Positions 7,615-59,962 of a stretch of 64,000 nt of DNA are shown here, one piece after another; position 1 is the stretch's first letter, and each line of letters starts with the position of its first letter. The position numbers and the translations under genes are program-made. This DNA comes from an uncultured Candidatus Saccharibacteria bacterium (GTDB lineage: Bacteria; Patescibacteriota; Minisyncoccia; Phycocordibacterales; JACNGX01), in assembly GCA_964621395.1 (NCBI GenBank), contig CAZULS010000002.1, positions 23,306 through 87,305 of the forward strand, written 5' to 3'. A model generated the notes under the pieces. That model was not told the DNA's origin. It saw only the letters and a program-made list of their open reading frames with translations, and ran no database searches.

Positions 7615-7720
7615 AGGGAAGTTGTTAGTTGGTAGTTTTTAGTTTTTAGTGGGCGCGGCTACGCCGCGCCTTAAGGATAAGAAAAAGTGGCGGCACCGAA
7701 GGTGCCGCCACTTTTTCTTT
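7615..7720. repeat. Composite intergenic repeat module, copy 1
   Basis: gggaagttgttagttggtagtttttagtttttag, then the palindrome ggcgcggctacgccgcgcc, then the hairpin gtggcggcaccgaaggtgccgccac with a T-run. Related modules at 11032-11133, 23992-24050 and 56195-56250. Confidence 0.7.
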
Positions 7721-9178: not shown

Positions 9179-9257
9179 AGAATTACGAATTATGAATAGA
9201 AAAAGTGGCGGCACCTTCGGTGCCGCCACTTTTTTCCATACCCTATCCCATATTCCC

Positions 9258-9395
9258 GTCATCCCGCACTTGATGCGGGATCTCGAGAGAGTGGTTTCGA
9301 AAAGTGGAATTCGGACAAAACCAAAGTTCACCTTTGGTATTCATACCAAAGGTGAACTTTGGTTTTGTAAGATCCCGCATCAAGTGCGGGATGAC
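9258..9395. repeat. ~140-bp compound imperfect palindrome
   Basis: GTCATCCCGCA-CTTGA-TGCGGGAT at 9258-9283, a family-B palindrome at 9317-9366, and the inverted hairpin AGATCCCGCATCAAGTGCGGGATGAC at 9370-9395. Together they form a nested palindrome. Confidence 0.7.
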
Positions 9396-9508
9396 ACTAT
9401 ATATTTCGTTGTTACGCGAGCGCAGCTCGCGCCTGCTTGCCGTTAGGCATACATATTTCGTATTTCATACTCCTAACTAACTTCTAGCTGTAAGCTAAAA
9501 ATGATACA

Positions 9509-11031: not shown

Positions 11032-11133
11032 GGGAAGTTTTTAGTGGGTAGTTTTTAGTTTTTAGGAACGGCGCGCTACGCGCGCCTTAAAGATGAAGAA
11101 AGCGGCGGCACCTTCGGTGCCGCCGCTTTTTCT
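11032..11133. repeat. Composite intergenic repeat module, copy 2 (ends in a terminator hairpin)
   Basis: gggaagtttttagtgggtagtttttagtttttag, then ggcgcgctacgcgcgcc, then gcggcggcaccttcggtgccgccgc with a T-run. Confidence 0.7.
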
Positions 11134-12371: not shown

Positions 12372-13364
12372 TTGGAAAATCCAAGAATAAATATGAGCGA
12401 TACATTGCCACCAATTGAAGAATTGAAAGAAAATCCAAAAACCGCATTCCTTGTCGGCGAGCTTGAGCGTGTGGAGAGTGAGATGGGGAAGACACGTGCG
12501 CTCGCTGAGAGTGATCCGGGCATGGCGGAGCTTGCCGAAAGTGAGCTTGCGGACTTGGAAGCACAGAAAAAGGGTATCGAAGAGCAGGTGAAGAAAATTG
12601 TGAAAGCTGAGGAAGAAGAGCAACGTTTCCCGAATGAACTTATCTTGGAAGTGCGCGCCGGCGCCGGCGGGGAAGAAGCTGCGCTTTTTGCCCAAGAACT
12701 TGCTGAGATGTATGAACGATATGCCGAGCGCAGAGCGTGGCAATTTCGTAAGCTCGATGTGTCGGAGAGCGAGCTTGGCGGCTATAAAGAGGGAACATTC
12801 GAAATCAAAGGACTTGGTTGCTATAAAGATCTGCGCTATGAAATGGGTGTACATCGCGTGCAGCGTATTCCCGCCACGGAGAAGCAGGGGCGTATCCATA
12901 CCTCCACAGCATCGGTTGCAATTATGCCGGTGCGTAAAAAGACGACGATTACGATTGATCCATCGGAGCTTGATATTGAATTCTCCCGATCGGGCGGTGC
13001 CGGCGGACAAAATGTGAATAAAGTGGAAACGGCTGTGCGTCTCATTCACAAGCCGACAGGCATAGCGGTGCGCTGCCAATCCGAGCGAACACAGCAGAAG
13101 AATAGAGAGAAGGCCCTTGGGTTGCTCGAGGCGCGTCTTCAGGCTGAAAAGGATGAAGAGGAGGCGAAAAAGCACGCCGATACGCGCCGAGATCAGATTG
13201 GTACCGGTGACCGATCTGAAAAAATCCGCACATATAATGTGCCGCAAAATCGCGTGACTGATCACCGCATCAAAGAATCATGGCATAATATCGAAGGGAT
13301 TTTGGGAGGTGATTTGGATGATATTGTAGAGGCGTTTATAGAACCAGTCTCATTGAAAACGTGA
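12372..13364 (+). CDS. prfA: Peptide chain release factor 1
   Basis: GGQ motif ([10 protein letters not shown]) and the RF1-type PAT tripeptide (RIPATE). Likely true start at 12393 (MSDTLPP). Confidence 0.88.
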
Positions 13365-13546
13365 AAAAAGAATCGTACTCAAGAGCTGCGCTTGGCAGTT
13401 CTCGCACTCACACTGCGGCTGCACCTTGTCGCTCAACCACACCGTACGATAGTACGCTGTAGTCTCCGCGACGTCGGCTCGCTCGCAGTGTGAGCGCGAG
13501 AACAGCCATTTTCAGTGAGACTGGTTCTAGAACCAGAGGGAGAATA
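13339..13546. ncRNA. Structured ~170-200-nt element, E-family copy 1 (candidate ncRNA / structured repeat)
   Basis: Outer stem pairs the last codons of prfA (13339-13362) with 13506-13530. A 20-bp inner stem gttctcgcactcacactgcg/cgcagtgtgagcgcgagaac encloses conserved loops and a cgtac-n-gtacg hairpin. Paralogues lie at 31405-31612 and 59809-59940. Confidence 0.5.
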
Positions 13547-13702
13547 AAAGTTTATTTTGAGTTTTCCACATATTGCCAAGATCCCCTTTCTTCTTGCGGT
13601 TGAAATACGGTATACTAAAGATAGCTCATAGTGGCTGTCTTTTTCCGTGTATTTCCTTGTGATGTGTGAAATGGCGCGGTCTCATTTAATTATTTTAATC
13701 AA

Positions 13703-16129
13703 TTGTATTTTTGTATGTCTTATATTACGAAAGTCTTCTCCGCGCTCACTCTCGTATGTGCTCTGTGTGGTATTGCCTCACTTGCATATGCGCAAGAAGT
13801 GGAGACTGTTGAATTTACCATTGTGGCGGAGGTGTCTGTCTTTGATGCTTCTGTTGTTCAAGAACAGAATACGCTCACAGCGTCATTTATCATTGCCAAC
13901 GGTGCCGATACCGTTCAATCCGACATTCGCTACGGTATGGAGTTATGGAGTGTTTCAGCGCAGCAAGGTGAGGCATCCATTCGCGTCCACACAGCTGTTG
14001 CCGATGAAACGATTGCGCTCGCTCCGGGAGAAGTTCGTGCAAAGGCAATAACTGCCACTATACCAACATCTCTTTCTGGACTCTACAGAGTATCTATTGT
14101 TGCCGAAACATTGAGTGGCATGCCACTGGGACGTACCTCAGCCGGCTTTGTCCAACTGGAGGAGACAGCAGGTGGCAGCACAGTGATTAATCAAAGCACG
14201 TGTTATACGGAAGTTTCCGGTGGCGACACAGCATACTCCACTCGACAGGGTGTGGATGTGACAGCCACAGAAACACTTACCATGACCTGTGACGTAGTCC
14301 ACAGTGGTGGAGACACCACACTCACTCCACTTTTTGTGACCACCGAACGATCACTCTATGGTGAAGAAGTGGGAAGCGATACCGGCACATCAGTATCCCT
14401 TACCGAAGGTGTACAAGAGGTTATCTTCACTATCCCAACTCCTCTAGCTCCTCAGGCATACGATACAACAGTAACTCTTTATGATGCATCGTCTGCTGTG
14501 TCCAACACAGCGAGCATCCACTATGTTGTCCAAGGTGCGAGCGCTACCATCCAAAACATCACGCTTGATAATACAACCTATCAAGAGGGGGACACAGCCA
14601 CTGCATCTCTCTTTGTGACCGGTATTGCCGGTGCATTCCCTGACGCTCGCAATGAAGCAGGGTCACTTTCAAATCCCACTCTTGTCGCCACGCTTGAAAG
14701 CGTATCAGGTATTGCCTGTGCTGAGCCGGTGAGCACCTCCCTTACAGAACTTGAAGTAGAGAACACCGCGTTTGTCGATGTATCATTTGCCGTGACTCGT
14801 ACGTGTCCTGATGCAACCGTTTCTCTCGAAGTGAAGGATGATTCGGGTGTTTTGGCTTCACATACAGCTGTAACCATGGCGACGCCCGAGGCGGCAGGAC
14901 CCGCATCTGCAATTGCCATTATTGTCTTAGTGGTTATTGCCGGTGTGGTCATCTTTATTGTCACCCGTGCTGACAAGAAGTTGCCGACGGCAGCGATTAT
15001 GATTGTGGTTGTTTCTGCAATGTTTGTGTGGGGAGGAGGTGTCGAAGCATATAAGTACAAGTCAACAAAAGAGAGTATGAAGGTAGGAGGAACGAGTTTT
15101 ACCGCGGTCTTCAAGAGAATTGTCTTAAGCACTACAGATGTTGCGATATTTACACTGCAGGGGAGTATCAACAGAAAAGAATATAATCCTGGAGAGAATG
15201 TGTTGGTTGATGCAAGCATCCGGTCTTCAGTGTGTAACAACACATCTTCCGAAGTGGGCATGGGCTGGGCCGTCAATGAAGGTGAAATCAGAGGATTGTT
15301 TACTCAGACGATTGATAATAGTGATACAAAAGGATATGGATGTCAAAACTCGGCAGGGTGGTGTAATATTCATGAGACGGCAGCTTTTGACCAATATTTA
15401 GTCCCGAGCCCTGGTGAGCACAATGCACGATTTGCTATCACAGGATTTGCGCTCCATGAAGATACAGGACACAAAGAGACAATTATAGGCAATATTCTTA
15501 TTCCTTTCACCGTTATTGCACCGCCAGATCCTGTTGCCTCTCTCAACGCTCAACCCAACATTGTCTTTGAAGGAGATAGCACCCTTCTCACATGGACATC
15601 TGCAAATGTGGCTTCCTGTGTGGCAGAATCCAATCCTCCGGTATCCGGTTGGGAGGGAAGCGTTACCGCTGATATGCAAGACAGCATGATTGTTGGTCCG
15701 TTGGCGCTTGTCGATCCGCCGGTGTATCTCTTCTCGATTTCATGTATTAACGATGAGAATGAAATTGTCGAAGACTCTGTTCAAGTGTTCGTAGAAGAGA
15801 AAACACTTCCGGAATGTTCTGACGGCGCCGAGAACGACGGCGACGGGTGGATTGATGAGGAAGACCCTGGTTGTATCAATGATGGCATCTATGATCCAAA
15901 TGACGACAATGAAAGCAATGATTCACCGGCATGTTCTGATGGTTCCGACAATGATGATGACAATCAAATAGATGCTGCCGATCCAGGATGTAGTAATGGC
16001 AATGATCCCGATGAATCGGATGAGCCAACGGAACCCGAGGACGATGGTGACGATACTGCAGATCCGGGAGATGGAGGTGATACAGGAGATACTGTCGATC
16101 CTGATGAGATTGACTTCTCGGAGTTCTAA
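13703..16129 (+). CDS. Large cell-surface protein with central TM anchor and Asp-rich tandem C-terminal repeats
   Basis: Signal peptide (likely ATG at 13715), Thr/Ser/Val-rich beta-type extracellular region, two TM helices at ~aa 395-440, and a C-terminal duplicated CSDG-x-NDGDGWIDEEDPGC acidic motif resembling calcium-binding repeats. Confidence 0.55.
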   Translation: MYFCMSYITKVFSALTLVCALCGIASLAYAQEVETVEFTIVAEVSVFDASVVQEQNTLTASFIIANGADTVQSDIRYGMELWSVSAQQGEASIRVHTAVADETIALAPGEVRAKAITATIPTSLSGLYRVSIVAETLSGMPLGRTSAGFVQLEETAGGSTVINQSTCYTEVSGGDTAYSTRQGVDVTATETLTMTCDVVHSGGDTTLTPLFVTTERSLYGEEVGSDTGTSVSLTEGVQEVIFTIPTPLAPQAYDTTVTLYDASSAVSNTASIHYVVQGASATIQNITLDNTTYQEGDTATASLFVTGIAGAFPDARNEAGSLSNPTLVATLESVSGIACAEPVSTSLTELEVENTAFVDVSFAVTRTCPDATVSLEVKDDSGVLASHTAVTMATPEAAGPASAIAIIVLVVIAGVVIFIVTRADKKLPTAAIMIVVVSAMFVWGGGVEAYKYKSTKESMKVGGTSFTAVFKRIVLSTTDVAIFTLQGSINRKEYNPGENVLVDASIRSSVCNNTSSEVGMGWAVNEGEIRGLFTQTIDNSDTKGYGCQNSAGWCNIHETAAFDQYLVPSPGEHNARFAITGFALHEDTGHKETIIGNILIPFTVIAPPDPVASLNAQPNIVFEGDSTLLTWTSANVASCVAESNPPVSGWEGSVTADMQDSMIVGPLALVDPPVYLFSISCINDENEIVEDSVQVFVEEKTLPECSDGAENDGDGWIDEEDPGCINDGIYDPNDDNESNDSPACSDGSDNDDDNQIDAADPGCSNGNDPDESDEPTEPEDDGDDTADPGDGGDTGDTVDPDEIDFSEF

Positions 16130-16979: not shown

Positions 16980-17304
16980 TACATTGGGTACGAAGTACGA
17001 ACACATACGAACATACGAAGACTGCTCGCAGTGAGTCACTTGTTGTCATCAAGCACCATACTTTTGACTTCGTGAAGAATATATTCTCTTCAGAAACATA
17101 TTTACTGACAAGCATATTCATTTTCAAACACATAAGTATGGTGCTCGATCCAGGAAACGTACGAAGATTCTGAATCAAGTTCAGGATGACATCGAAAGTG
17201 GTTTATATGTCAAAAATCAGATTCGTATGTTCGTACCAATTCGTAGTTCGTAACTTCTTAATTTCCTAACTTACTAATCTCCTAATTTACTAACGTACTA
17301 TCGT

Positions 17305-24550: not shown

Positions 24551-24640
24551 CCAAGGTTAAACCTTGGTATTTATACCAAGGTTTAACCTTGGGAGCTCAG
24601 AGCACGAAGATCCCGCATCAAGTGCGGGATGACAGCAGAA
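24551..24640. repeat. Family-B palindrome plus REP-like hairpin
   Basis: ccaaggttaaaccttggtatttataccaaggtttaaccttgg followed by agatcccgcatcaagtgcgggatgac. It is part of a 560-bp repeat-filled intergenic region upstream of gyrB. Confidence 0.7.
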
Positions 24641-24939
24641 AGAAGTATCTTGTCATCCAGCCCCACTTTCACTAATTACCTTTAAATAACACTAGTCGTC
24701 AAAGAGTTCAGCTAACGAAATGTGGTAATCGTACTTAATCAGTGAAAGTGGGGCTGGATCCAGAGCAGAATCAGGTTGGTCGCATATCCTTGTAGATTCC
24801 TGGTCACCAGAGCCCCACCCAGCCCTTTTCCGAGAAAGAGCTGGGTCGAGCTCGGCAGGAGCCGGGAATGACAGCTTATAGATTTTTGTTTTTCCATTTA
24901 TTTTTTATCGTTTATAGTTAACCGTTCATCGTTTTATCC

Positions 24940-27147
24940 ATGCCAGCCAAGAAAGAGACAACCAAAAAAACTGCCGAGAAAACTAAAAAATCAAATGGCT
25001 CGCCTAAACCGTCGAAAACGACGGTCGGCCAAGCCGGACATCATTACGATGCGTCGGATATTTCGGTGCTCGAGGGACTGGAGCCGGTGCGCAAGCGTCC
25101 GGGTATGTATATCGGATCCACGGGCGTGGACGGACTCCATCATTTGGTATGGGAGATTTTCGACAATGGTCGCGATGAGGCAATGGGCGGGTATGCGAAC
25201 CATGTGGAGGTGGTGATTCTGTCGGGTAATCGTATTCGCATCGCTGACAACGGTCGTGGTATTCCGGTGGATATGCACAAAAAGACAAAAGTCTCCGCAC
25301 TTGAAACGATCATGACAACACTCCATGCCGGAGGTAAGTTTGGTGGCGATGGTTATGCGAAGGCTACAGGAGGTCTTCACGGTGTCGGTGCCTCGGTGGT
25401 GAATGCACTTTCTTCGTACACGAAGGTCATGGTGCATCGCGATGGCGGTTTACACATGCAGGAATACAATACCGGAAAGGCGAAAGCAAAGGTAAAGAAG
25501 CTTGGCGCATCAAAAGCACATGGGACGATTGTTGTCTTCCAGCCCGATAAGGATGTCTTCTCCGAAACTGAATTTTCATGGAATAAAATTGTGCAACATA
25601 TTCTGCAACAGGCGTATTTGGTGAAGGGTTTGCGGGTGTCGGCATATGATGCTCGAGAGTACGCGGGGGATGTCGACTTGGAAGGCAAGGACATTCATTT
25701 TGTCTCCGAGCTGGAGCTTGCACTTCCTTCGCAATCATATTTCTTTGAAGGAGGATTGGTGTCGCTTGTGCGTCACAATAATGAATTCCAGAAACCGATT
25801 CACAAGAATATTTTCTTTGTGGAAAAAGAAACGGATGACGGTGTTTCGGTGGAAGTGGCATTTCAGTATGTGGATGATATTTCCGCGCGTCTCTCGGCAT
25901 TTGCCAATTCCACGCCGACGATTGAAGGTGGTATGCATGTGACCGGCTTTAAGACAGCGCTCACACGCGGGCTCAATTCCTATGCGCGAAAGAATAAGAT
26001 TCTCAAGGAGAGTGATGAGAATTTCACCGGTGATGATGTGCTCGAAGGAATCACGGCAGTGGTATCGGTGAAGCTCAAGGAGATTCAATTTGAAGGACAA
26101 ACCAAAGCAAAGCTCGGAAGCGTGGAGGCGCGCGGTGCTGTGGAGACGGTCTTTGGTGAAGCGTTGGGAGAGTTTCTTGAAGAACATCCCGATGACGGCA
26201 AGGCGATTGTGCAGAAGGTGATTTTGGCGCTCAAGGCGCGTAAGGCGGCTAAGGCAGCGAAAGATTCGGTGTTGCGCAAAGGTGCACTGGAAGGCATGAC
26301 ACTGCCAGGGAAATTGGCAGACTGCCAAACAAAAAGTGCCGCAGATTCCGAGCTCTTTATCGTGGAGGGAGACTCAGCGGGTGGTACGGCAAAATCGGGG
26401 CGTGATCGAAAGACACAGGCGATTTTGCCTTTGCGTGGTAAGATTTTGAATGTGGAGCGCGCGCGTTTGGACAAGATGCTTGCCTCCGAGCAAATCAAAA
26501 ATATTGTGGTGGCACTTGGGGCGGCAATTGGTGATGCGCTTGATATGGAAAAACTCCGTTATCACAAGATTATTATTGCAACCGACGCCGATGTCGATGG
26601 TTCCCACATCGACACACTTCTTCTCACACTCTTTTTCCGTTATTTCCGTCCGGTTATCGATGGGGGCTTTCTCTACATTGCCATGCCGCCTCTCTATAAG
26701 ATTAAAAAAGGAAAGGAGGTGTTTTATGCATTCACTGATGCTGATAAGGCGGAGATTTTGAAATCACTGGGCGTGGAAGATATGGAGGAGGCACCGGATT
26801 ATGGCCTAGACTCCTCTCTAGAAGAGTCGGCCAAAGAAGGCGAGGAGAGTGAGGAAGCTGAAGATGAAGGCCTAAACGCCGACAAGTCGGCATCGGCCAA
26901 GGAAGAGCCTGAAGCAAAGAAAAAAGCTGGCAAAGTACACATCCAGAGGTATAAGGGTCTCGGTGAAATGAATCAAGACGAGCTTTGGGAGACGACCATG
27001 GATCCGGAGAATCGACTTCTCAAACAAGTGACCATTGAAGACGCTGAAGAAGCAAATCGTGTCTTCGACACCCTCATGGGCACCGACGTATCCTCTCGCA
27101 AAACCTTCATCCAAAACAATGCAAAGTACGCAAATATCGATGCGTAA
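24940..27147 (+). CDS. gyrB: DNA gyrase subunit B
   Basis: GHKL ATPase region (LEGLEPVRKRPGMYIGSTG), Toprim region (EGDSAGG), and the C-terminal QRYKGLGEMN motif. An acidic ~45-aa insertion before QRYKGLGEM contains the in-frame palindromic element at 26870-26907. Confidence 0.93.
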   Translation: MPAKKETTKKTAEKTKKSNGSPKPSKTTVGQAGHHYDASDISVLEGLEPVRKRPGMYIGSTGVDGLHHLVWEIFDNGRDEAMGGYANHVEVVILSGNRIRIADNGRGIPVDMHKKTKVSALETIMTTLHAGGKFGGDGYAKATGGLHGVGASVVNALSSYTKVMVHRDGGLHMQEYNTGKAKAKVKKLGASKAHGTIVVFQPDKDVFSETEFSWNKIVQHILQQAYLVKGLRVSAYDAREYAGDVDLEGKDIHFVSELELALPSQSYFFEGGLVSLVRHNNEFQKPIHKNIFFVEKETDDGVSVEVAFQYVDDISARLSAFANSTPTIEGGMHVTGFKTALTRGLNSYARKNKILKESDENFTGDDVLEGITAVVSVKLKEIQFEGQTKAKLGSVEARGAVETVFGEALGEFLEEHPDDGKAIVQKVILALKARKAAKAAKDSVLRKGALEGMTLPGKLADCQTKSAADSELFIVEGDSAGGTAKSGRDRKTQAILPLRGKILNVERARLDKMLASEQIKNIVVALGAAIGDALDMEKLRYHKIIIATDADVDGSHIDTLLLTLFFRYFRPVIDGGFLYIAMPPLYKIKKGKEVFYAFTDADKAEILKSLGVEDMEEAPDYGLDSSLEESAKEGEESEEAEDEGLNADKSASAKEEPEAKKKAGKVHIQRYKGLGEMNQDELWETTMDPENRLLKQVTIEDAEEANRVFDTLMGTDVSSRKTFIQNNAKYANIDA

Positions 27148-29023: not shown

Positions 29024-29102
29024 TAGATTCCCGCTCGGAGGCGGGAATGACAGCAAACAGACTGAAAAAGTAACCACTGTCATCCCGCACTTGATGCGGG
29101 AT
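29024..29102. repeat. Pair of REP-like hairpins
   Basis: gattcccgctcggaggcgggaatgac at ~29024-29051 and gtcatcccgcacttgatgcgggatct at ~29078-29102, preceded by the hairpin ctggcttgaaccccaagccag. Confidence 0.7.
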
Positions 29103-29112
29103 CTCGCCATAT

Positions 29113-30969: not shown

Positions 30970-31026
30970 GTAATCATGTGCCGGTCGGCAGAGTTTATGT
31001 TTCTCGTTTTAAGTAACACTGCCTTT

Positions 31027-31269
31027 TTATGATTTGTCTTTGAGAAAGCATATTCCGCAACCAGTAAGTGCCTCCACTATAAGTATCACAATACAAGAGG
31101 TAATGTAGGTCCCGATGATAGGGAGTATGCCCTGGGGATTGATAATCAGCACAGGAATTACCCCCGTAAGTGTAACGTGTATAAAAAACACCACTTCTTC
31201 ATCTGTATGAATAGCGAGAATAAGACTTGTCACTGCCAAGGCAATGAAGATAATCAATGTAGTGGTCAT
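31027..31269 (-). CDS. Small membrane protein, hypothetical (80 aa)
   Basis: Two hydrophobic helices. Confidence 0.35.
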   Translation of the reverse strand: MTTTLIIFIALAVTSLILAIHTDEEVVFFIHVTLTGVIPVLIINPQGILPIIGTYITSCIVILIVEALTGCGICFLKDKS

Positions 31270-31404
31270 TTGCGTCTCCCGTATAGAGTTAAATTATTCA
31301 CAGAGCTTACTAAGGCGGATTATATACCACCTCTATGGCCTGTCAATAAGCGGCGCGTGAGCGCCGCTTGTGTGTGTTTGTTCCATATTCCATTTTTTCC
31401 AACT

Positions 31405-31612
31405 TCGAGTTTCTAGAACCGGTCTCACTGAAAACGGCTTGTTCTCGTGCCCAAACAGCGAGCGAACCAACGTCGCGGAGACCACAACGTACCGTTCGTA
31501 CGTTGTGGTTGAGCGACAAGGTGTAGCCGCTGTTTGGGCGCGAGAACTGCCAAGCACAGCTCTTGAATATGTTTCCATTATTTTTTAACGTTTTCAGTGA
31601 GGATGGTTCTCA
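31405..31612. ncRNA. Structured element, E-family copy 2 (inverted relative to copy 1, immediately 3' of dnaE)
   Basis: Inner stem gttctcgtgcccaaacagcg/cgctgtttgggcgcgagaac carries compensatory changes relative to copy 1 (ctcacact/agtgtgag versus cccaaaca/tgtttggg). It has a perfect 11-bp hairpin accacaacgtac-cgttc-gtacgttgtggt and the conserved ttgagcgacaaggtg and cgtcgcggagac segments. Confidence 0.5.
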
Positions 31613-31615
31613 TTT

Positions 31616-34600
31616 CTAACCTTCCTCTTTTTTCAACTCTTTTACCGCATCGGCGATGACGGAGATGTCGCCATTGCGGGTGGAGAATTTCCCTTGCACG
31701 GCGATGCACGTATCCACTTCGAGAAGGTCTTTGAACTCTACAAATACTTTCGGGAAGATGACCACTTCAATGGTGTCGTGGAAATCGGCAATGCGGATAA
31801 ATGCCATGCGCTCACCTTTTTTGGTGAGAAGAGCACGCACATCTTCGATAATGCCGGCGACGATTGCGCGTGAACCGTCGCGAGCGTTTTCTTTCAGTGT
31901 TACCAGATTCATACCGCGTTCTTCAAAACGTGCACGAAATACCTCAAGAGGGTGTCCGGAAATATACAAACCAAGAAGCTCTTTTTCCCACATGAGCATC
32001 TGTTCTTCTGAAATCGCCTCTTTTTCTTTCAGTCGGAATGAGGGAATAGAGGATTCATCCATGAGTCCGAAAATCGTTCCTTGATCTTTGCACGCGCCAT
32101 GGTGCTCATGGTGATAATTGGCAGCCTCTTCAATATTGCCTATGAGTGTACTGCGGTCGCCAAAAGAATCTGTTGAGCCACTTTTCATGAGCGCTTCGAG
32201 AGACTTGCGGTTGAGATTTTTGTGTTCAATGCGCTCGAGGAATTCTCCCAGGGATGAAAATGGACCGTGTTCTTTTCGCTCGGCAATAATGGCATCGGAA
32301 ATATCGGTACCGAGATTTTTTACGGTGTACAGACCGAATCTAATACTATCTCTCTCCTCTTCTTTGCGCACCACGGTAAAGTCACCAAAACTCTCATTCA
32401 CATCCGGCGGGAGAACGGGAATATCCATGCGTTTACACTCGGCAATAATTTCCGCCACTTTCTCGGTGTCGCCGGCTTCCGCGGAAAGCACGGCAGTCAT
32501 GTATTCCACCGGATAGTGTGCCTTCATGTATGCCGTCTTATACGCCAAGTTTCCGTAGCTTGCGGCATGTGCTTTGTTGAAACCGTAGGCGGCGAATGTT
32601 TCAATCTGATTCCAGAGCTCTTGCGCAGCTCTCGGTGTCATCTCGTGCTCGACACATCCTTCGATAAAGCGCTTCTTCTGCTTTGCCATTTCCTCGGGAA
32701 TTTTCTTACCCACCGCCTTGCGGAATTTGTCGGCCTCGCCCCAGGAGTATCCCGCGAGGTGTACGGCAATGAGGAGAATATCGTCTTGATAAATCAAAAT
32801 ACCATATGTGGGTTCAAGGAACTCTTTCAGGCGCGGATCGAGATAGGTTACCTTGGAGGGATCTTTTTTGCGTTCGATATAATCGGGAATAAATGCCATT
32901 GGGCCCGGACGATAGAGTGCAACCATAGCGTTGATGTCGTCGATGTTGGTGGGGCGAAGCTCCATGAGCCACTTGGTCATGCCGGCACTAGCCATTTGAA
33001 AGACGCCCATCGTCCTTCCTTGAGCGAGCATCGTATATGTTTTCACGTCATCAAGCGGCAGGGTATCAAGATTGATTTCTATACCATGAAGCTGCTCTAC
33101 AAGACGAACAGAGTGCTCAAGCATGGCAAGGTTGGTGATGCCGAGGAAGTCAAATTTCAAAAGTCCCGCGTCTTCCACGGCATGCATGTCGTATTGTGTG
33201 ATGATTTTTCCTCCCTTTGGATCGTACTGCACAGGCGTGAACGTGGTCATCTCAGCCGGAGCAATCACCACGCCCGCGGCATGAACGGAAATGTGCCGGG
33301 CACACCCTTCGATTTGTCGGGCGGTGTTGATAATCTCTTGTGCTTCGGCGGATTCGTCATAGAGTTTTTTCAGATCTGGCTCTTCTTCAAGTGCACGCTC
33401 GATGGTCATGGGAAATCCTTGTGAGCCGGGAGGGATGAGCTTCGCAATCATGTCGCCGGTATTATAGGAATGGCCGAGAGCACGGGCGACATCGCGCACT
33501 GAACCGCGCGCAAGCATGGTACCGAATGTACCAATCTGAGCAACGCGATTTTCACCGTATTTTTCCCGAGCATACGCAATGACTTCATCGCGACGATTGT
33601 CGGCAAAGTCCATATCGATATCCGGTGCCGACGGGCGCTCCGGGTTGAGAAAACGCTCGAAGGGGAGACGATAATCCAGCGGGTTGATGCTGGTAATAAA
33701 GGTGAGATATGCCACGAGAGAGCCCGCGGCCGATCCTCGGGTGTTGGTGAGGATGCCGTTATTTTTTGCAAAGGTGAGGAGATCGGAAACCACAAGAAAG
33801 TATGGAGAATAACCCTTGGTCTTGATGATATCGAGCTCGTATTCAATACGCTCCTCAACTTCCGGTGTGCGGGTAAGCCCGCGCTTTTCAATGCCTTCAA
33901 GGGTAATGCGACGCAATTCATCGTCGTAATTGGTGTGTTCCGGAATGACAAAGTCGGGGAAAACCCAATTGCCGAGCTCAAGAGAAAGTGTGCACTTCTC
34001 AGCGATGGCAAGCGTATTTGCGAGTGCCTCGGGTGCATCGGCGAAGAATTCCTGCGCCTGCTCCTGAGATATGAAAGAAAAATCGGGTGTATCCTCCATG
34101 AAACCCACATCCTCGGCAACGGTATTACCCGAACCGATGGCAATCATGATTTCGCGAATGCGGTGGTCTTCCGCTTTGAGATAATACACATCGTGCGCGG
34201 CAACGAGCGGCACATTTTCCGTATGAGCAAAATCGACGATTTTTTTCCGACGCTCCATCTGGCCCTCCATTTCCGGATGGTGTGTGATTTCAAGATAGAA
34301 ATCTTCATACATCGCCTGATATTCCGCAACGCGCGCTTTCGCGCGCTCCGTATCACCCTGAGCAAGCATGTCGGCAATGTCGCCTGAGAATTGCGGATTG
34401 ATACACACGAGCCCTTCGGAGTGCTGCCTCATGAGCTCCATGTCGATACGGGGTTTGTAGTAGAAACCTTCAAGGTACGACTTACTCACCAAACGCATGA
34501 GGTTGTAATATCCTTCAGTGTTTTTTGCAAGAAGGACAATGCGGTGCCGACGATTATCAATACCCGGGCGTTTGTCGTGACGGTTTTCAAGCGCGACATA

Positions 34601-34810: not shown

Positions 34811-35023
34811 GGTGGGGTAAGTATAGCATATGAGCTTATAGCTTTTAGCTTGTAGCTTAGAGGATGTGGTTGTGTATTTTCTCCACTGTCATCCTACACT
34901 TGATGCGGGAATCTTCGCTAATTTCCGAAAGGACGGACCTGTCTGCAAAGTCTGAAAAAGTGTGGTGTAATATTTCCAAAATCTCGTTTGTCCCTGCTTA
35001 TGTATCCGTAGTACAATACAGAT

Positions 35024-37173: not shown

Positions 37174-37440
37174 ATGTCAGTACGCATGCGCCATACGCGC
37201 TCTCATACAAAGAATCGTCGTTCACATCACGCGCTCTCAGCACCGCGTCTTTCGACGTGTGCCAATTGTGGCGCTGAGCATATTCGCCATCGTATGTGTG
37301 GTGAATGTGGTACGTATCGCGGTCGTGAAGTGATTGATATTGTTGCGCAGAAAGAACGCAAGATCGAACGCGCAAAGAACAAAGCAAAATCCATGGGCAA
37401 AGACCCTGCTGAAGTCTCAACGCAAAAAAAGAAGAAATAA
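37174..37440 (+). CDS. rpmF: 50S ribosomal protein L32
   Basis: MSVRMRHTRSHTKNRRSH, the Zn-ribbon CANCG...CGECGTYRG, and a Lys tail. The annotated ORF starts at 37087 and runs through the terminator. Confidence 0.85.
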   Translation: MSVRMRHTRSHTKNRRSHHALSAPRLSTCANCGAEHIRHRMCGECGTYRGREVIDIVAQKERKIERAKNKAKSMGKDPAEVSTQKKKK

Positions 37441-37455
37441 ATGCTTGCCGGCTGA

Positions 37456-37552
37456 CGCACTCATATTCCGGCTGCAAATCGCTCAAAGCACCTCGAAGTA
37501 CGAGAGTACTCCATCGGTGCTTTTCACGATTTTCGCTCGGAATATGAGCGCG
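37456..37552 (+). other. ~95-nt nested stem-loop element 3' of rpmF (structured RNA or terminator complex)
   Basis: A 15-bp outer stem cgcactcatattccg/cggaatatgagcgcg (one G-U) encloses an 8-bp stem aaagcacc/ggtgcttt and an inner agtac/gtact hairpin. Confidence 0.4.
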
Positions 37553-37840
37553 TCACGCTCGACATGAGACTTTGCGCAGGGTCTGGACATAAAAGATGCC
37601 GAAACAAAAGCACGAAAGGAAGAAAAGGTGGAGAAAAAAGAGAAGGTGTCTGCAACGAAAGAAAAGAAGGCAAAAAAGCCTGTAGCAAAGAAATCCACAA
37701 GCACGAAAGCGAAATCCACGAAAAAGTCTGAAAAATAGTGTATAATATAAACGGAACCGAAACGGTGCCGTTTGTTGTTTAGACGACTCTAAACATCCGT
37801 CGCCGTTTCTGTTTCTAGATTTATTCAATAGCTCTTTAGA

Positions 37841-38731: not shown

Positions 38732-38744
38732 CATCTATGATGTC

Positions 38745-38822
38745 ATCCCGCACTTGATGCGGGATCTCGTAATTTTTTGCACATACTCTCTTTATCTGGA
38801 TTCCTGGTCAAGCCAGGAATGA
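38745..38822. repeat. Pair of REP-like hairpins
   Basis: gtcatcccgcacttgatgcgggatct and ggattcctggtcaagccaggaatgac. Confidence 0.7.
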
Positions 38823-39718: not shown

Positions 39719-39924
39719 TCCCAACGCCCTCTCTTGTCATTCCGGCCTCCGAGCCGGAATCCAGGGTCTTGTGCATATTATTTATGTCTGACTGGATTCT
39801 GAATCAAGTTCAGAATGACAAGTTATTACTTTCCACTGTCATTCCCGCCTCCGAGCGGGAATCTTCACAGAATCATCCTCAGAGGTTAGCTTGGGGAGAT
39901 CCCGCATCAAGTGCGGGATGACAC
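39719..39924. repeat. BIME-like cluster of four REP-like hairpins in alternating orientation
   Basis: GTCATTCCGGC-CTCCGA-GCCGGAAT (+), ATTCTGAA-TCAAG-TTCAGAATGAC (-), GTCATTCCCGC-CTCCGA-GCGGGAAT (+), AGATCCCGCATCAAGTGCGGGATGAC (-). A gcaacgcgatcatgaatgaccgcgctgc terminator-like hairpin follows at ~39945-39972. Confidence 0.75.
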
Positions 39925-40661: not shown

Positions 40662-42914
40662 ATGCTGAAATCGATTGAGGTGCAGGGGTTTAAGTCGTTT
40701 GCGAAGAAGAGCGAGCTTGAATTCTCCGCACCTATTTCTTGTATTGTGGGGCCCAACGGTTCCGGAAAATCAAATGTCACCGAGGCGCTGCGCTTTGTCT
40801 TGGGTGAGCAGTCTATGAAATCGCTTCGCAGCAAACGCGGAGAGGATTTGATTTGGAGCGGGTCGCAGGGGGCGCCGCGTTCGGGACGAGCGAGTGTGGA
40901 GATTGTCTTTGATAATACAAAGCGCATGTTTGATATGGATTTCGATGAAGTGTCGCTCAAACGCGTGGTCTCACGCGACGGAACAAACGAATATTTTGTG
41001 AATGGCTCGGCGGTGCGCCTGAAAGATGTGATGGAGCTTCTCTCCTCAGTGCATGTGGGCGCGTCCGGGCATCATATTATTTCCCAAGGAGAGGCGGACC
41101 GTATTTTGAATACATCGGCGAAAGAGCGTCGCAATATTGTGGAAGATGCGCTCGGTTTGAAAATTTATCACTTCAAGATTGCCGAGAGCGAAAAGAAGCT
41201 CAAGAAAACAGAGGAGAACATGAAGGAGGTGGAGGCTTTGCGAAGAGAGATTGCGCCTCATATGCGTTTCCTCAAAAAGCAGGTGGAGAAGGTGGAGAAG
41301 GCTCAAGAGCTTCGAGAAAAGCTCCGCGGACTCTATGTGGAGTATCTCAAGCGTGAGTCGCTCTATCTTGCGCATGCCGGAGATGAATACGAAACAAAAA
41401 AGAAAGAGCTTTCTCACAAACTTGAAGCGGTGGAGAAACGCATTGCCGAGGCACAAGCACGCATTGCCGGCCAAGAGAAGGGAGAGGACGTGGAGGATAC
41501 GTCAAAGCGATTACAGCTTGAAGAGGCGGTGAAAAAAGCACGTGAGAGAAAGGAGGTGGCGGGCAAAGAGCTCGGGCGCATTGAAGGTATGCTTTCAATT
41601 ACCGAAGGGCGTATTGCGCGTGCTGAAAAAGAGACCTATCATCCCGTGAGTCACGAATCAGTAACGCGTTTTCTTGATGGATTAGAGGAAGCGCTGAAAG
41701 ACACGAGCGACACCAGTATGCTCGGACGTATCCTCATGGATGTGAAAAAGCGCATTGAAGATTTTCGCTCGTCGGTCGTGAGCGAGAGTAAGGAAGCGGA
41801 AATTGCTGCTGCCGCCGAAGAGAAGGTGCGATTGGAGACAGAGCGAAAGGAAGCACATGATTTCTTTGAACACGCGGGAAACGATGAAGACGCGGCGCGG
41901 CGCGCACTGGCCGCTTACGAACACGAAGTAGCGGAAGAGAAAAGCGCATCACACACTGCCGAAACGGAACTCTATGCGTATCGCGCGGAAAGAAACGAGA
42001 TTTCTGCACAGATGGCACGTGTGGAGGACACTCTGGCGCGTATTGAAAAAGACTCGCACGTCTTTGAAGAAGAGATTCGTGAAGGCATGGTGCTCATTGG
42101 CGGTGCTATTCGAGATTTTGATACGTATGTATGTGATGAGACAGAAGCACTGAATGAAGCGCGCGAGGCCCAGGAGGATCGCCGTCGCAGTATTGAGCGT
42201 ATTAAGATTCGCTTAGAGGAGACAGGGGTTGGCGGGGGAGAAGACGTGCTGAAGGAATACGAAGAGACAGCAGAGCGCGATGGATTCCTTGCTTCACAGC
42301 TCGGTGATTTGGAAGAGACAGCCACATCACTTCGCACACTTGCAGCTGAGTTGGAGGCAGAGCTTGATACGGCGTTTAAGAGTGGTTTGGAGAAAATCAA
42401 TGAACAATTCAATACCTTTTTCACGCTTATGTTTGGTGGGGGAAATGCCGCACTCAAACTGGTAAAAATGGAAAAGCGCAAGAAGAAAGATGAGGAGATT
42501 GATATTGATATGGATAATATGGACGGAAGCCTAAACGCCGACGAGTCGGCGTCGGCCGAGGAGGGAATCGATATTGCGGTGTCGTTGCCACGAAAGAAAA
42601 TCCACGGACTGCAGATGCTCTCAGGTGGGGAGCGTGCACTGACATCTATTGCACTCATCTTTGCCATGTCGCAGATCAACCCGCCGCCGTTTCTCGTCCT
42701 TGATGAAACGGACGCGGCACTCGATGAAGCCAATTCGCGCCGCTATGGCGACATGCTCGAGAATCTTGCAAAGCATTCCCAGCTTATTGTGGTGACCCAC
42801 AATCGCGAGACGATGTCACGGGCAGGTGTGCTCTACGGTGTGACTATGGGATCCGACGCTGTTTCTCGCCTCATCTCAGTGAAGCTCGAAGAAGCTGCGG
42901 CGTATGCGAAATGA
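40662..42914 (+). CDS. smc: SMC-family chromosome-segregation-type ABC ATPase (short coiled coil, 750 aa)
   Basis: N-terminal IEVQGFKSFA...GPNGSGKSN, long coiled-coil middle, ABC signature LSGGERALTSIAL, Walker B/D-loop FLVLDETDAALD. It contains the in-frame palindromic element at 42529-42566. An extended -10 TGcTATAAT lies at 40638-40646. Confidence 0.8.
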   Translation: MLKSIEVQGFKSFAKKSELEFSAPISCIVGPNGSGKSNVTEALRFVLGEQSMKSLRSKRGEDLIWSGSQGAPRSGRASVEIVFDNTKRMFDMDFDEVSLKRVVSRDGTNEYFVNGSAVRLKDVMELLSSVHVGASGHHIISQGEADRILNTSAKERRNIVEDALGLKIYHFKIAESEKKLKKTEENMKEVEALRREIAPHMRFLKKQVEKVEKAQELREKLRGLYVEYLKRESLYLAHAGDEYETKKKELSHKLEAVEKRIAEAQARIAGQEKGEDVEDTSKRLQLEEAVKKARERKEVAGKELGRIEGMLSITEGRIARAEKETYHPVSHESVTRFLDGLEEALKDTSDTSMLGRILMDVKKRIEDFRSSVVSESKEAEIAAAAEEKVRLETERKEAHDFFEHAGNDEDAARRALAAYEHEVAEEKSASHTAETELYAYRAERNEISAQMARVEDTLARIEKDSHVFEEEIREGMVLIGGAIRDFDTYVCDETEALNEAREAQEDRRRSIERIKIRLEETGVGGGEDVLKEYEETAERDGFLASQLGDLEETATSLRTLAAELEAELDTAFKSGLEKINEQFNTFFTLMFGGGNAALKLVKMEKRKKKDEEIDIDMDNMDGSLNADESASAEEGIDIAVSLPRKKIHGLQMLSGGERALTSIALIFAMSQINPPPFLVLDETDAALDEANSRRYGDMLENLAKHSQLIVVTHNRETMSRAGVLYGVTMGSDAVSRLISVKLEEAAAYAK

Positions 42915-42966: not shown

Positions 42967-43047
42967 CTCCTCCGTCATCCCGCACTTGATGCGGGATCTC
43001 GAGCAAGTGCTTTCATAAAATAAGATTCCCGATCAAGTCGGGAATGA
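42967..43047. repeat. Pair of REP-like hairpins
   Basis: gtcatcccgcacttgatgcgggatct and gattcccgatcaagtcgggaatgac. Confidence 0.7.
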
Positions 43048-43127
43048 CAAAAAATAGAAAAAGAAAAAGGCGCGATGTTCCTTCAGGAACATCGCGCCGT
43101 CTCGATTTTCGCGGTACCATATTATAT

Positions 43128-43514: not shown

Positions 43515-43678
43515 TATGGTGTCATTCTGAACTCGATTCAGAATCTATCCCGATGTTGTCTTTAATGACGAAGATTCCGCATCAAGTGCGGAATGACAGA
43601 GAATAGAAAAAAGAAAAAGGCGCGATGTTCCCGAAGGAACACCGCGCCTTTTGGCTTGAGAAAGTAAAAACCCGGCAA

Positions 43679-46732: not shown

Positions 46733-47269
46733 ATGTTAAAAATACGTTTACAACGCGTTGGCCGTAAACATGACCCGTCTTTCCGCGTGGTGGTGACGGA
46801 TTCTCGTTTCGCTGCTCAGAGTGGTAAGGCGCTTGAAGTACTCGGTTCATATAACCCGCGTTTCGATAACCCAACACTCAAAGAAGATCGTATCAAGGAA
46901 TGGATTGCCAAAGGTGCGCAGACATCCGGTACGGTACACAACATCCTCGTTGGCGCAGGTATTATTGAAGGGAAGAAGGTGAATGTGCTCCCGAAGAAGG
47001 CACCGATTAAGAAGGAGAATGAAGACCAAAACGCCGACGAGTCGGCATCGGTCAAGGAGGCAGAAGCGGAAGCTCCGGTGGCGGAAGAAGCATCGTCTGA
47101 GACACCAGCTGACCAAAATTCCTCTGAAGAGGAATTGGTCAAGGAAGAAGCTGCACCTGAAGCTCTAGCTGAAGAGAAGGCAGAAGAGACATCTCAAGAA
47201 GAAGCACCAACTGAAGCTGAAGCATCTGAAGATGCACCGGCTGAAGAGGAAGAGAAGAAAGAAGAGTAA
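46733..47269 (+). CDS. rpsP: 30S ribosomal protein S16 with long acidic C-terminal extension
   Basis: MLKIRLQRVGRKHDPSFRVVVTDSR S16 core. The ~90-aa Glu/Ala-rich tail contains the in-frame palindromic element at 47025-47062. Confidence 0.88.
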   Translation: MLKIRLQRVGRKHDPSFRVVVTDSRFAAQSGKALEVLGSYNPRFDNPTLKEDRIKEWIAKGAQTSGTVHNILVGAGIIEGKKVNVLPKKAPIKKENEDQNADESASVKEAEAEAPVAEEASSETPADQNSSEEELVKEEAAPEALAEEKAEETSQEEAPTEAEASEDAPAEEEEKKEE

Positions 47270-47282
47270 TATAATAATCCAA

Positions 47283-47390
47283 AAACAGCCTGACACCACT
47301 TTTACATTTCTTTTCAAGAAACACCGTCTCGTGACGGTGTTTCTTGAATCATGATATAAACGTCTTCGTAATCGAAAGTGGTGTCAGGCT
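47283..47390 (+). terminator. Nested terminator: 21-bp outer inverted repeat enclosing a 13-bp hairpin
   Basis: aaaacagcctgacaccacttt ... aagaaacaccgtc-tcgt-gacggtgtttctt ... aaagtggtgtcaggctgtttt. Confidence 0.6.
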
Positions 47391-47472
47391 GTTTTGTGTT
47401 TGACCCAACAATTCCCAACGTGTATTCTAGAGGAAGGAATTTGTTTTTTCTAACACTTAATCATACAACGCT

Positions 47473-48881: not shown

Positions 48882-49862
48882 ATGGCAAACAAAAATTCAG
48901 CACAAATGATAACGGGGAAATCTTTCGAGTATGCTCTTCTTGTTTCGTTTGAGGATAAGTTAAAGAGTAAAACCAACCTTGAAGTAATTAAGAACTCAGC
49001 TTTTTATGTTGCAAAAAGTTGTTTCGACAGTGTCTCTCCGAGCAAAAGAAGCGAGTATCTTTTATCAGCAAGTTTTGCTGTGAATTTTCTAATGGATATA
49101 GAACCTAGACTCTCAAACGATATGGGCAAAGATGATGTTCTTCAGCTTGAAATTTTATCTGATGATTATGGTAAGACAGGCGATGTTCGTGATGTGCTTG
49201 CTATCAGATTACTTCAGAAATGGGAAATTGGAGTTTCTGCAAAGAATAACCATAAAGCAGTTAAACATCCGCGACTATCTTCAGATATAGATTTTGGTGA
49301 TAAGTGGCTAGGCATTAAGGCGTCAGAAAAATATTTTGATGCAGTGGTGCCCATATTTGACCTTCTTAAGAAGATTAAAAAAGAGAGTGAGGGAAAGAAA
49401 AAATGGAATGAACTAAAAAATTATCACGCAGAGATATACGTACCAATCCTTCAGGCATTTGTAGAGGAGTTGAGAAGTCTTTATAAAAAGAATCCTAAAA
49501 AGGTAGCCTCAAATTTAGTTGCATATCTTGTTGGTAATAGGGATTTCTATAAGGTAATCAAGGGCAAGAACTCTGTAGAAATTCACGCTTATAATTTGAA
49601 CGGGACATTAAATTTACCTTTCAAGGAAATTCAGCCAAAATACAAGACCCCTAAAGTTCCTCTTCCTACGGAGATTACCGATATAGTCTTCAAAACCGAC
49701 AGTGATACAACAGTAATAGTTACTATGAACAATGACTGGACACTATCTTTTAGGATTCATAGTGCAAGTTCTAGAGTCGAACCATCTTTAAAGTTTGATA
49801 TAAATCTATTGAAGTCACCAAAGAAATTATTCAAGAATACACTGAATATCAGTCACGATTAA
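48882..49862 (+). CDS. Putative Type II restriction endonuclease (partner of the adjacent GGCC-type m5C methyltransferase)
   Basis: A 326-aa Lys-rich protein with no recognisable catalytic motif. Its stop is 3 nt before the MTase start, so the two are translationally coupled. Size and context match HaeIII-family REases. The assignment rests on association. Confidence 0.5.
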   Translation: MANKNSAQMITGKSFEYALLVSFEDKLKSKTNLEVIKNSAFYVAKSCFDSVSPSKRSEYLLSASFAVNFLMDIEPRLSNDMGKDDVLQLEILSDDYGKTGDVRDVLAIRLLQKWEIGVSAKNNHKAVKHPRLSSDIDFGDKWLGIKASEKYFDAVVPIFDLLKKIKKESEGKKKWNELKNYHAEIYVPILQAFVEELRSLYKKNPKKVASNLVAYLVGNRDFYKVIKGKNSVEIHAYNLNGTLNLPFKEIQPKYKTPKVPLPTEITDIVFKTDSDTTVIVTMNNDWTLSFRIHSASSRVEPSLKFDINLLKSPKKLFKNTLNISHD

Positions 49863-49864
49863 CT

Positions 49865-50842
49865 ATGAAATTAGTATCTTTGTTTACAGGCGCAGGAGGG
49901 CTTGATCTCGGATTTGAAAAGGTCGGTTTTCAGGTTATTTGGGCAAATGAATTCGATAAATCAATATGGAAGACTTTTGAACATAATTTTCCACATACAA
50001 AATTAGATAAGAAGAGCATCACAGAAGTTCAATCATGTGAAGTACCGGACGCAGACGGGTTTATTGGCGGACCTCCTTGTCAGAGCTGGAGTGAAGCAGG
50101 TGCCGGACGAGGGATAGACGATAAGCGTGGACAACTCTTTCATGATTATATTCGTCTTCTAAAGGATAAACAGCCGAAGTTTTTCCTTGCTGAAAATGTA
50201 TCCGGCATTCTTCATCCCAAACATTCGGAAGCTTTTTCAAATATTATCAAGGAATTTGAGAACGCAGGATATGTTGTGTCTCAAAAATTATTAAATGCGA
50301 ACGATTATGATGTTCCACAGGATAGATTACGTGTCATCATCATTGGATATCACAAGGATCTAGGAAAGAAGTTTGAATTTCCTGAGCCACAAATATATAA
50401 ACCTGTTCTCAGGGACGCTATTTATGACTTGCGCAGAGCGAAGCCGGCCAAAGATAGGAACAAGACAAATGGTGAGAGTTTGGAAATACCGAATCATGAA
50501 TATATGAACGGCGGTTTTTCGACGATTTACATGTCTAGAAATCGTGTGCGAGCTTGGGATGAGCCATCATTTACAATACAGGCAGGTGGTCGTCATGCGC
50601 CAATTCATCCACAGGCCCCGAAAATGAAATTCATCGAACAAAATAAAAGAATCTTTGTCCCTGGGTACGAAGATAAGTATCGTCGGCTGTCTGTTCGAGA
50701 GTGCGCGAGAATCCAGACGTTTCCGGATGATTTTATATTTAAATATAACGATGTTGCGAATGGATATAAAATGATCGGTAACGCTGTGCCAGTTAATTTT
50801 GCGAAGCATATTGCACGGAAGATAATGGATGATTTAGTATAG
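49865..50842 (+). CDS. DNA (cytosine-5)-methyltransferase, M.HaeIII-like
   Basis: Motif I LFTGAGGLDLGF, motif IV GGPPCQSWSEAG, motif VI FLAENV, motif VIII QDRLRVIIIG, motif X GNAVPVNF, in a 325-aa protein with a short target-recognition domain. The overall sequence strongly recalls the HaeIII/NgoPII GGCC group. Confidence 0.9.
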   Translation: MKLVSLFTGAGGLDLGFEKVGFQVIWANEFDKSIWKTFEHNFPHTKLDKKSITEVQSCEVPDADGFIGGPPCQSWSEAGAGRGIDDKRGQLFHDYIRLLKDKQPKFFLAENVSGILHPKHSEAFSNIIKEFENAGYVVSQKLLNANDYDVPQDRLRVIIIGYHKDLGKKFEFPEPQIYKPVLRDAIYDLRRAKPAKDRNKTNGESLEIPNHEYMNGGFSTIYMSRNRVRAWDEPSFTIQAGGRHAPIHPQAPKMKFIEQNKRIFVPGYEDKYRRLSVRECARIQTFPDDFIFKYNDVANGYKMIGNAVPVNFAKHIARKIMDDLV

Positions 50843-50846
50843 AGAT

Positions 50847-53597: not shown

Positions 53598-53702
53598 ACT
53601 GGATTCCCGCTCGTGGGCGGGAATGACAAGAACTGCGTTGGGAATGATAAAAAGGTAGGGAAGTACACAGAAGCACGCAGCGGCACCGAAGGTGCCGCCG
53701 CG
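53598..53702. repeat. REP-like hairpin plus recurring terminator hairpin
   Basis: ggattcccgctcgtgggcgggaatgac, and gcggcaccgaaggtgccgcc, the same stem as at 7687, 9205 and 11102. Confidence 0.65.
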
Positions 53703-53830
53703 CGCTTGTTTCTTTGGGTATTGGGATTTCGGTATTATTTGTTATTTGGTGCTTGGAGTTTGTGTTTTGTCCTTCTGTATCCACAGAGGGCTGATTGGTA
53801 CTTCTTTCTTCGGTCGGGTATAATATATCT

Positions 53831-59767: not shown

Positions 59768-59808
59768 TTATATTAACCAAGAACCTTTCTCATATTAAAT
59801 GGCTTATA

Positions 59809-59940: not shown

Positions 59941-59962
59941 ACAATATCAGGAGCGGTTTAAT

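Follow-up and report, generated by a model that had tools for sequence, protein, structure and literature searches.

A putative family of small mobile hairpin elements in and beside housekeeping genes of a Parcubacteria genome

To gain insight into a dispersed repeat with strong hairpin potential we analyzed a 64-kb window of an uncultured bacterium (positions 23,306 to 87,305 of contig CAZULS010000002.1, assembly GCA_964621395.1; all coordinates below refer to this window unless stated otherwise). The window contains four copies of a hairpin repeat of approximately 190 nt, which are dispersed and have unrelated flanks. Homologues of release factor 1 (RF1) and RpoB place the window, part of a metagenome-assembled genome, in the Parcubacteria group next to Ca. 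Yonathbacteria. On balance we favor the view that the repeat represents a family of small, non-coding and non-autonomous mobile DNA elements, resembling miniature inverted-repeat transposable elements (MITEs) or REPINs. The element is previously undescribed and has no relative in any database searched. Its insertion, including that into coding tails, is recent and confined to this lineage. Furthermore, only dispensable positions tolerate an insertion, namely the sequence just behind a stop codon, the short spacer of an operon, or a C-terminal tail that is not essential and receives a new stop from the element.

The copies were located at 13339-13529 (sense strand minus; copy 1), 31414-31611 (plus; copy 2), 59780-59978 (plus; copy 3) and 37399-37585 (minus; copy 4), with 'sense' referring to the better-folding orientation that was used for the alignment. 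They ranged in size from 187 to 199 bp (191, 198, ~199 and ~187 bp for copies 1 to 4, respectively). A 21-nt terminal sequence (TAGAACCAGTCTCACTGAAAA) matched the window four times with none expected and fixed the true ends of copies 1 and 2. The terminal inverted repeats comprised 21 nt in copies 1-3 and were interrupted (9+8 nt) in copy 4. In copy 1 the arm adjoining prfA lies at 13339-13359 (TAGAACCAGTCTCATTGAAAA), and the distal arm at 13509-13529 is a match to the 21-nt terminal sequence. The right terminal repeat of copy 3 is located at 59963-59978 (ATATGAGACAGGTTCTA) and copy 4 is bounded by AGACCCTGC...GCAGGGTCT.

A covariance model built from copies 1-3 scored these at 202-228 bits and picked up the fourth copy over its full length (37400-37585, minus strand; 64 bits, E ~5e-12). 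This copy is the most diverged one, with 65-74% identity to the others. A second core model, built from all four copies, found no further copy in the window, even with filters off, and the 4 kb to the left of the window contained none either. Reading frames inside the element were not conserved between copies and there was no coding capacity. A first-pass annotation of this DNA, made by a model from the letters alone, had proposed a three-copy element of ~170 nt. The repeat is indeed real and far beyond chance, but it has four copies of ~190 nt each, and the boundaries had to be moved to those given above, since copy 3 had been cut short of its right terminal repeat.

Every copy folds as a single rod-like hairpin with a minimum free energy of -93 to -111 kcal/mol. 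Shuffling at full length resulted in z-scores of -10 to -12 for copies 1, 2 and 4, and copy 3, which was shuffled solely as the shortened stretch of the first-pass annotation, had a z-score of -6.3. From outside inward the rod starts with the outer stem formed by the terminal repeats and an insert of ~20-40 nt on one side only; a GGC/GCC step then leads to the 20-bp inner stem. Beyond this stem lie a bulged A, which is invariant, a GC/GC step and an internal GA/GNA loop, and the rod is completed by two to three further short stems with purine-rich loops between them and a GTAC-loop-GTAC apex. In copy 1 the 5' and 3' arms of the inner stem are located at 13484-13503 (sense GUUCUCGCGCUCACACUGCG) and 13398-13417 (sense CGCAGUGUGAGUGCGAGAAC), and the apical CGTAC-loop-GTACG hairpin at 13443-13456, all on the minus strand. 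Its GTAC...TCGTAC motif is invariant in all four copies. Inner stem and apex were thus found as initially described. Two conserved segments that had been regarded as single-stranded, however, partly pair with each other (GTCGC/GCGAC) and covary in copy 3 (GTCTC/GAGAC). The asymmetric internal loops and the one-sided insert of ~40 nt are common to all copies, and the imperfect palindrome is therefore older than the divergence of the copies. By eye, a single arm could form a local CTCGC...GCGAG or CGCTC...GAGCG pairing; it is not kept in every copy, and no conserved tetranucleotide was identified there.

The stems show genuine covariation, as had been proposed. In a structure-blind MAFFT alignment 16 of 66 pairs carried paired double changes with pairing kept, and 96.5% of the cells were paired. 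None of 500 shuffles reached this covariation and controls with slid partners gave 0-4 pairs. With copy 4 added, 27 of 66 pairs covaried in a model-fitted alignment (0/500 shuffles equal; slid controls 0-6 across both alignments). According to our own reading, copies 4 and 1 differ by six compensated pairs within the 20-bp inner stem. Of the block of eight paired substitutions reported between copies 1 and 2, three compensated pairs and a shifted wobble were confirmed in these 8 nt.

Covariation of this kind has to be read with care. REPINs, which are REP doublets forming hairpins and are mobilized by RAYT tyrosine transposases, commonly show compensatory changes (Bertels and Rainey 2011, PMC3116915), and covariation is therefore no proof of RNA function. 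The window itself carries a second, unrelated hairpin/terminal-repeat family of 105-130 bp (17038-17159, 24652-24759 and 47273-47401). Its termini read ATC(C/A)AGC(C/A)CCAC(T)TT...AAGTGG(G/T)GCT(G/C)GAT, and both arms change together between copies. These concerted arm changes match those of the element, which supports treating covariation as a property of the mobile hairpins of this genome rather than as a signature of RNA function.

Comparison with sister genomes revealed that all four orthologous sites lack the element. In genomes with an RF1 of 89-93% identity prfA is directly followed by rpsB, and the RF1 tails end with ...AFQSVGEQAK, ...AFKVVGEHTE and similar sequences. The tail of RF1 in the window is different and is encoded by the terminal repeat. 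The outer stem of copy 1 had been claimed to hold the last eight codons of prfA, which we can confirm: these codons (IEPVSLKT) lie within copy 1 together with the TGA stop. Excising the 189 inserted bases joins ...GCG TTT ATA to GAA CCA GAG GGA GAA TAA in frame with prfA. This displaced end, read directly from the sequence at 13530-13547 on the plus strand, is plausibly the original prfA tail. Between copy 1 and rpsB, at 13703-16129, an open reading frame (ORF) encodes 808 aa; its C-terminus is acidic and rich in D, and it has no Pfam hit. The whole segment of ~2.8 kb comprising copy 1 and this ORF is missing from the relatives, where prfA abuts rpsB. Furthermore, a contig of an independent short-read assembly of the same organism (Logan contig L001, SRR8146440, exact RF1 match) ends at position 2191, 61 nt into copy 1, as is usual for dispersed repeats. 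The identical RF1 is also on record from an NCBI contig of 294,908 bp.

Copy 2 is located just beyond dnaE, in agreement with the initial description. The gene lies on the minus strand with its stop at 31616-31618; the copy ends 4 nt from this stop and is situated upstream of the thrS promoter region. A sister contig of 14.7 kb spans both dnaE-thrS and rpmF-nusB and carries the element at neither place. At the sister locus (L020, 9275-9925) a 216-aa gene with an HTH_3 domain is found between dnaE and thrS; in the window, where the counterpart is 30970-31413, this gene is wholly missing from the dnaE-thrS region with no remnant detectable by tblastn. The window and this sister locus both retain the upstream TTGACA-16-TATAAT promoter (31319-31346, minus strand).

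Copy 3 fills the spacer between the rpoB stop (59765-59767) and the conserved rpoC ATG (59984), in the same direction as both genes. In genomes with RpoB of 97% and 95% identity the two genes overlap by gene calls or are 25-29 nt apart up to the conserved rpoC ATG, which corresponds to position 59984. Within the region 59950-59965 copy 3 carries an AGGAG and, 9 nt further on, an in-frame ATG (59963); the conserved start follows 21 nt downstream. The rpoC gene call of one assembly uses this element-borne start, resulting in 1215 instead of 1208 aa, so that a second rpoC start may have arisen through the insertion. Neither covariance model found a copy in the fetched DNA of sisters and relatives, by our own estimate ~75 kb after discounting overlapping contigs, compared to four copies in the 64 kb of the window.

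Copy 4 lies inside the C-terminal extension of rpmF, which encodes L32. The L32 of the sister has a long lysine-rich C-terminal extension, and the same coding sequence is split in the window: rpmF continues with 13 element-encoded codons to a new stop within copy 4 (37438-37440), and the cut-off coding tail remains at 37583-37738 (plus strand) with 51 intact codons and the original stop. When the 184 bp at 37399-37582 are taken out, the frame again runs colinear with the L32 of the sister up to the same stop and a conserved downstream hairpin. Compared to the sister, the first 22 codons of the remnant have 0/2/14 differences at codon positions 1/2/3, and the intact upstream part of rpmF has a similar distribution of 3/0/17 over 40 codons. 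Four-fold degenerate sites of window and sisters are only 50-56% identical. Coding constraint has thus acted on the remnant during almost the entire period since the split, which means that the insertion is recent. Since copy 4 is nevertheless only 65-74% identical to the other copies, diverged element lineages with the same fold were active. This argument for recent activity of diverged lineages draws on the rpmF remnant only.

The intact remnant could also be explained if the host genes were kept whole at the level of RNA or translation, by intron-like removal of the element or by ribosome hopping. The coding-type substitutions in the 51 codons would fit, the hairpin juxtaposes both junctions, and the codons at the two edges of the insert match (in-frame GAA CCA at a spacing of 189 nt for copy 1; GGC/GGT for copy 4). 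We nevertheless consider this highly improbable. A recent insertion explains the intact remnant more simply, and all four copies are located at gene ends or in spacers and none in a gene body, as expected of insertions that are not neutralized. Additionally, the orientation relative to the mRNA varies between copies, no known self-splicing core or bulge-helix-bulge motif was present, and Rfam found no ribozyme or intron. The bypass gap of T4 gene 60 comprises ~50 nt, and the element far exceeds it.

The junctions bear on how the element may have moved. The flanks of the four copies were TA/TA, TA/TC, AA/TA and none. Thus copy 1 is flanked by TA...TA, copies 2 and 3 retain one TA each, and a target-site duplication of constant length is lacking. 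No motif is common to the four 5' flanks. At the junction of copy 1 a 9-nt direct repeat was found (TAGAACCAG), whose second copy consists of the TA at 13528-13529 and the following GAACCAG; it arises because the flank continues the palindrome. This was the only significant junction repeat, since the 6 nt of copy 2 are at chance level and copies 3 and 4, with matches of 4 and 5 nt, have none of note. For copy 4 the flanking codons are fixed by the sister sequence, which excludes a target duplication of 2 or 3 bp.

These data are difficult to reconcile with a classical MITE, i.e. a derivative of a DDE transposon such as IS630/Tc1-mariner, arisen by internal deletion or fold-back, that a transposase would bind at the 21-nt terminal inverted repeats, move by cut-and-paste and insert with duplication of a TA target. 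Small size, lack of coding capacity and 21-nt terminal inverted repeats are what such an element would show. The TA...TA at copy 1 and the single TA at copies 2 and 3 would fit as well, and in copies 3 and 4 both terminal repeats change together, as if subfamilies tracked different transposases. Covariation of the stems would then stem from a fold-back origin or from template-switch correction of the arms in quasi-palindromes. However, copy 4 added exactly 184 bp between codons conserved in the sister, with no direct repeat of 2 or 3 bp, and the one significant junction repeat, in copy 1, belongs to the palindrome. Furthermore, later changes were compensated along the full length and not just at transposase-binding ends, and no transposase was found in the window. 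In the absence of a regular target-site duplication a classical DDE-MITE mechanism is not supported and we regard it as unlikely, even though MITE-type ends are present in the form of the inverted repeats.

The first-pass annotation had preferred a functional RNA over a MITE. That preference did not hold in view of the 21-nt terminal inverted repeats, the empty sister sites, the two insertions into coding 3' ends and the lack of a consistent sigma-70 promoter. The RNA interpretation is partly supported, and an RNA gene survives only as a minority alternative or as an added role. The version that we weighed is a mobile element with a second role as functional structured RNA, with the sense transcript acting as cis-antisense RNA, protein-binding RNA or 3' hairpin of the mRNA and with the fold selected in RNA. 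One point in its favor is the strand asymmetry. In the four copies the fold energies of sense strand and complement were -110.6 vs -98.9, -110.8 vs -103.5, -93.0 vs -74.5 and -106.3 vs -87.6 kcal/mol, so that the sense strand is 7-19 kcal/mol more stable in each. In place of the single imperfect stem position that had been postulated, the main hairpins contained 18 G.U cells and 8 A.C appositions. Counted as distinct events by ourselves these are roughly 13 versus 6, which is not significant, and the copies share ancestry, so that the asymmetry is partly inherited. Moreover, the asymmetry is equal under DNA energy parameters, and a constraint on RNA and one on single-stranded DNA are therefore indistinguishable by this measure. 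Of the proposed selection on RNA in one orientation, the better fold of one strand in 4/4 copies stands, and its assignment to RNA does not follow. The strand bias is suggestive only.

Other features fit a functional RNA in part. The bulged A and the GA/GNA loop are invariant and every copy contains further purine-rich loops. In copies 1, 2 and 4 the inner hairpin is succeeded by a U-run inside the outer stem, and the sense strand of these three copies reads antisense to the upstream gene's 3' end. Copy 3, however, has no U-run and is co-directional with its upstream gene, and a shared orientation in three of four copies is not significant. At none of the four copies did we find a sigma-70-type promoter upstream of the sense strand. 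The absence of the element from sister genomes speaks against a conserved host role, and Rfam contains no relative. Altogether we consider a selected RNA function doubtful.

We would rather read the element as mobile DNA that is kept structured, probably because its mobilization needs the fold. The mobilizing enzyme would act in trans and be encoded at another locus of the genome. By analogy to REPINs with RAYT, the ends of IS200/IS605 and attC sites, this enzyme may recognize the folded hairpin of one strand together with a few fixed bases. Such recognition would explain both the compensatory changes in diverged lineages and the better folding of one strand. When co-transcribed, the element would form a long RNA hairpin in neighboring mRNAs as a by-product, possibly a target of RNase III or a 3' stabilizer.

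Several observations weigh against this interpretation. The orientation of the copies relative to the GC-skew strand is 2:2, which misfits a simple single-strand transposon coupled to replication. Among the 20 ORFs of the window scanned against Pfam there was no transposase or recombinase, and neither a RAYT gene nor an integrase. An autonomous insertion sequence (IS) with the same ends was not found in the window and none is known. A single-strand mechanism is proposed by analogy only. Neither excision nor an empty-site polymorphism was seen within the population. Finally, internal loops that are purine-rich and conserved, together with a strand asymmetry seen in every copy, would be in keeping with a functional RNA as well.

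A bolder proposal would be a structure-guided mobile element of a new kind in the streamlined genomes of the candidate phyla radiation (CPR). Here the rod of ~190 nt with its fixed asymmetric purine-rich loops would be recognized and moved as folded single-stranded DNA or RNA with no terminal duplication, by an enzyme unrelated to RAYTs and integron integrases, and its sense strand might additionally act as a mobile antisense RNA against the 3' ends of adjoining essential genes. We think that this is improbable. If folded single-strand movement without a RAYT were true, the known range of structure-recognizing transposition would be widened.

Searches for relatives gave consistently negative results. 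At gathering thresholds only three tRNAs of the window passed in Rfam; in the permissive E-value mode the best matches were generic hairpin models with 14-21 bits, compared to thresholds of 41-100. The anticipated absence of the element from Rfam was thus borne out. No match was obtained in a metagenome collection with a 23-position pattern derived from three copies or with a 21-position pattern invariant in all four, nor in two scans of viral contigs, nor by BLASTN against plasmids and phages. Scanning a genome collection with the 21-position core pattern yielded three matches in unrelated GC-rich organisms. These were recognized by neither covariance model and were therefore regarded as chance matches. 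A spurious 81-aa ORF over copy 2 is present in a protein collection; a word-indexed search found no homologue of it, and an exhaustive HMMER search matched only a tandem-repeat protein, which was judged as chance.

Several known identities were considered and rejected. The strands of the GA/GNA loop misfit the K-turn consensus and a sigma-54-like TGGCA motif was a poor match, both by eye. A template or variable repeat of a diversity-generating retroelement was dismissed since the differences are not adenine-specific and the neighbors are not targets of such elements; for a retron, a tracrRNA or a bridge RNA an adjacent partner gene was lacking. An integron attC site does not fit the AGAACC...GGTTCT ends, the size of ~190 nt, the housekeeping neighbors and the scanned ORFs, which include no integrase. 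IS200/IS605-derived PATEs have subterminal hairpins and no terminal inverted repeats and lie 3' of a conserved tetra- or pentanucleotide; the element has terminal inverted repeats and its 5' flanks have no common motif.

Further repeats were present in the window. A REP-like hairpin of 26 nt (GTCATCCCGCACTTGATGCGGGATCT) occurs at least 12 times, in both orientations and in intergenic spacers, often adjoining other repeats (9258-9284, 9371-9396, 17166-17191, 24609-24634, 29078-29104, 34882-34910, 38741-38768, 39795-39820, 39898-39923, 42970-42999, 43024-43049 and 43573-43598). Two families of GC-rich hairpins were found in addition: the terminator-like AAAAAGTGGCGGCACCGAAGGTGCCGCCACTTTTT at 7680-7716, 9198-9234, 11095-11131 and 53670-53706, and GCCTAAACGCCGACNAGTCGGC...GGCC at 354-393, 26864-26903, 42523-42562 and 47019-47058. 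At 48882-52784, directly upstream of trmD, lies an island of low GC content (38% vs ~47%) with genes for a HaeIII-type restriction endonuclease, a C5 cytosine methyltransferase and an AAA_15/AbiEii-like ATPase. At the equivalent place the sister carries DpnI and a PemK toxin, so that the island is a variable defence islet.

Patescibacteria (CPR) have small genomes in which mobile DNA is usually considered scarce. The window holds at least two hairpin-repeat families as well as abundant REP-like hairpins. The element sits in or beside prfA, dnaE, rpmF and the rpoB-rpoC junction and has rewritten the C-termini of RF1 and L32, and the repeat fragments short-read assemblies of this lineage. For pipelines of non-coding RNA discovery it is relevant that covarying stems and conserved loops alone cannot separate a functional RNA from a mobile hairpin.

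Among described systems, REPINs come nearest to the element. Both are non-coding dispersed repeats that form one long hairpin in single-stranded DNA or RNA, with conserved symmetric ends, a less conserved middle, compensatory changes and no classical target-site duplication. In both cases several diverged families occur per genome and abundance is lineage-specific. The element differs in size and has no recognizable short REP unit in each arm, and it possesses conserved asymmetric purine-rich loops and the one-sided insert of ~40 nt. Two of its copies invade coding 3' ends, whereas REPINs are extragenic; moreover, its host is a Patescibacteria/CPR genome, with no RAYT seen in 64 kb.

Correia/NEMIS, ERIC, RUP and the Rickettsia palindromic elements are bacterial MITEs with hairpin potential over the whole length, and the Rickettsia palindromic elements insert in frame into protein-coding genes. 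The element resembles them by a size in the range of 100-200 bp, terminal inverted repeats, sites in intergenic regions or at gene ends and hairpins in co-transcribed mRNAs. It differs by the lack of a consistent duplication of TA or any other target, by covariation that spans the whole rod and not just the terminal repeats, and by having no sequence similarity in plasmid and phage collections, Rfam and the contig scans.

Integron attC sites comprise 57-141 nt and are thus shorter than the element of ~190 nt, whose AGAACC/GGTTCT ends misfit the RYYYAAC/GTTRRRY cores. Its neighbors are housekeeping genes and not cassettes, and there is neither an integrase nor a cassette array in the window. 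Other features are shared. Both are imperfect palindromes with structure over sequence, located at the 3' ends of genes, and in attC sites extrahelical bases and asymmetric loops set the active strand, which recombines in folded single-stranded form without duplication, as is proposed for the element.

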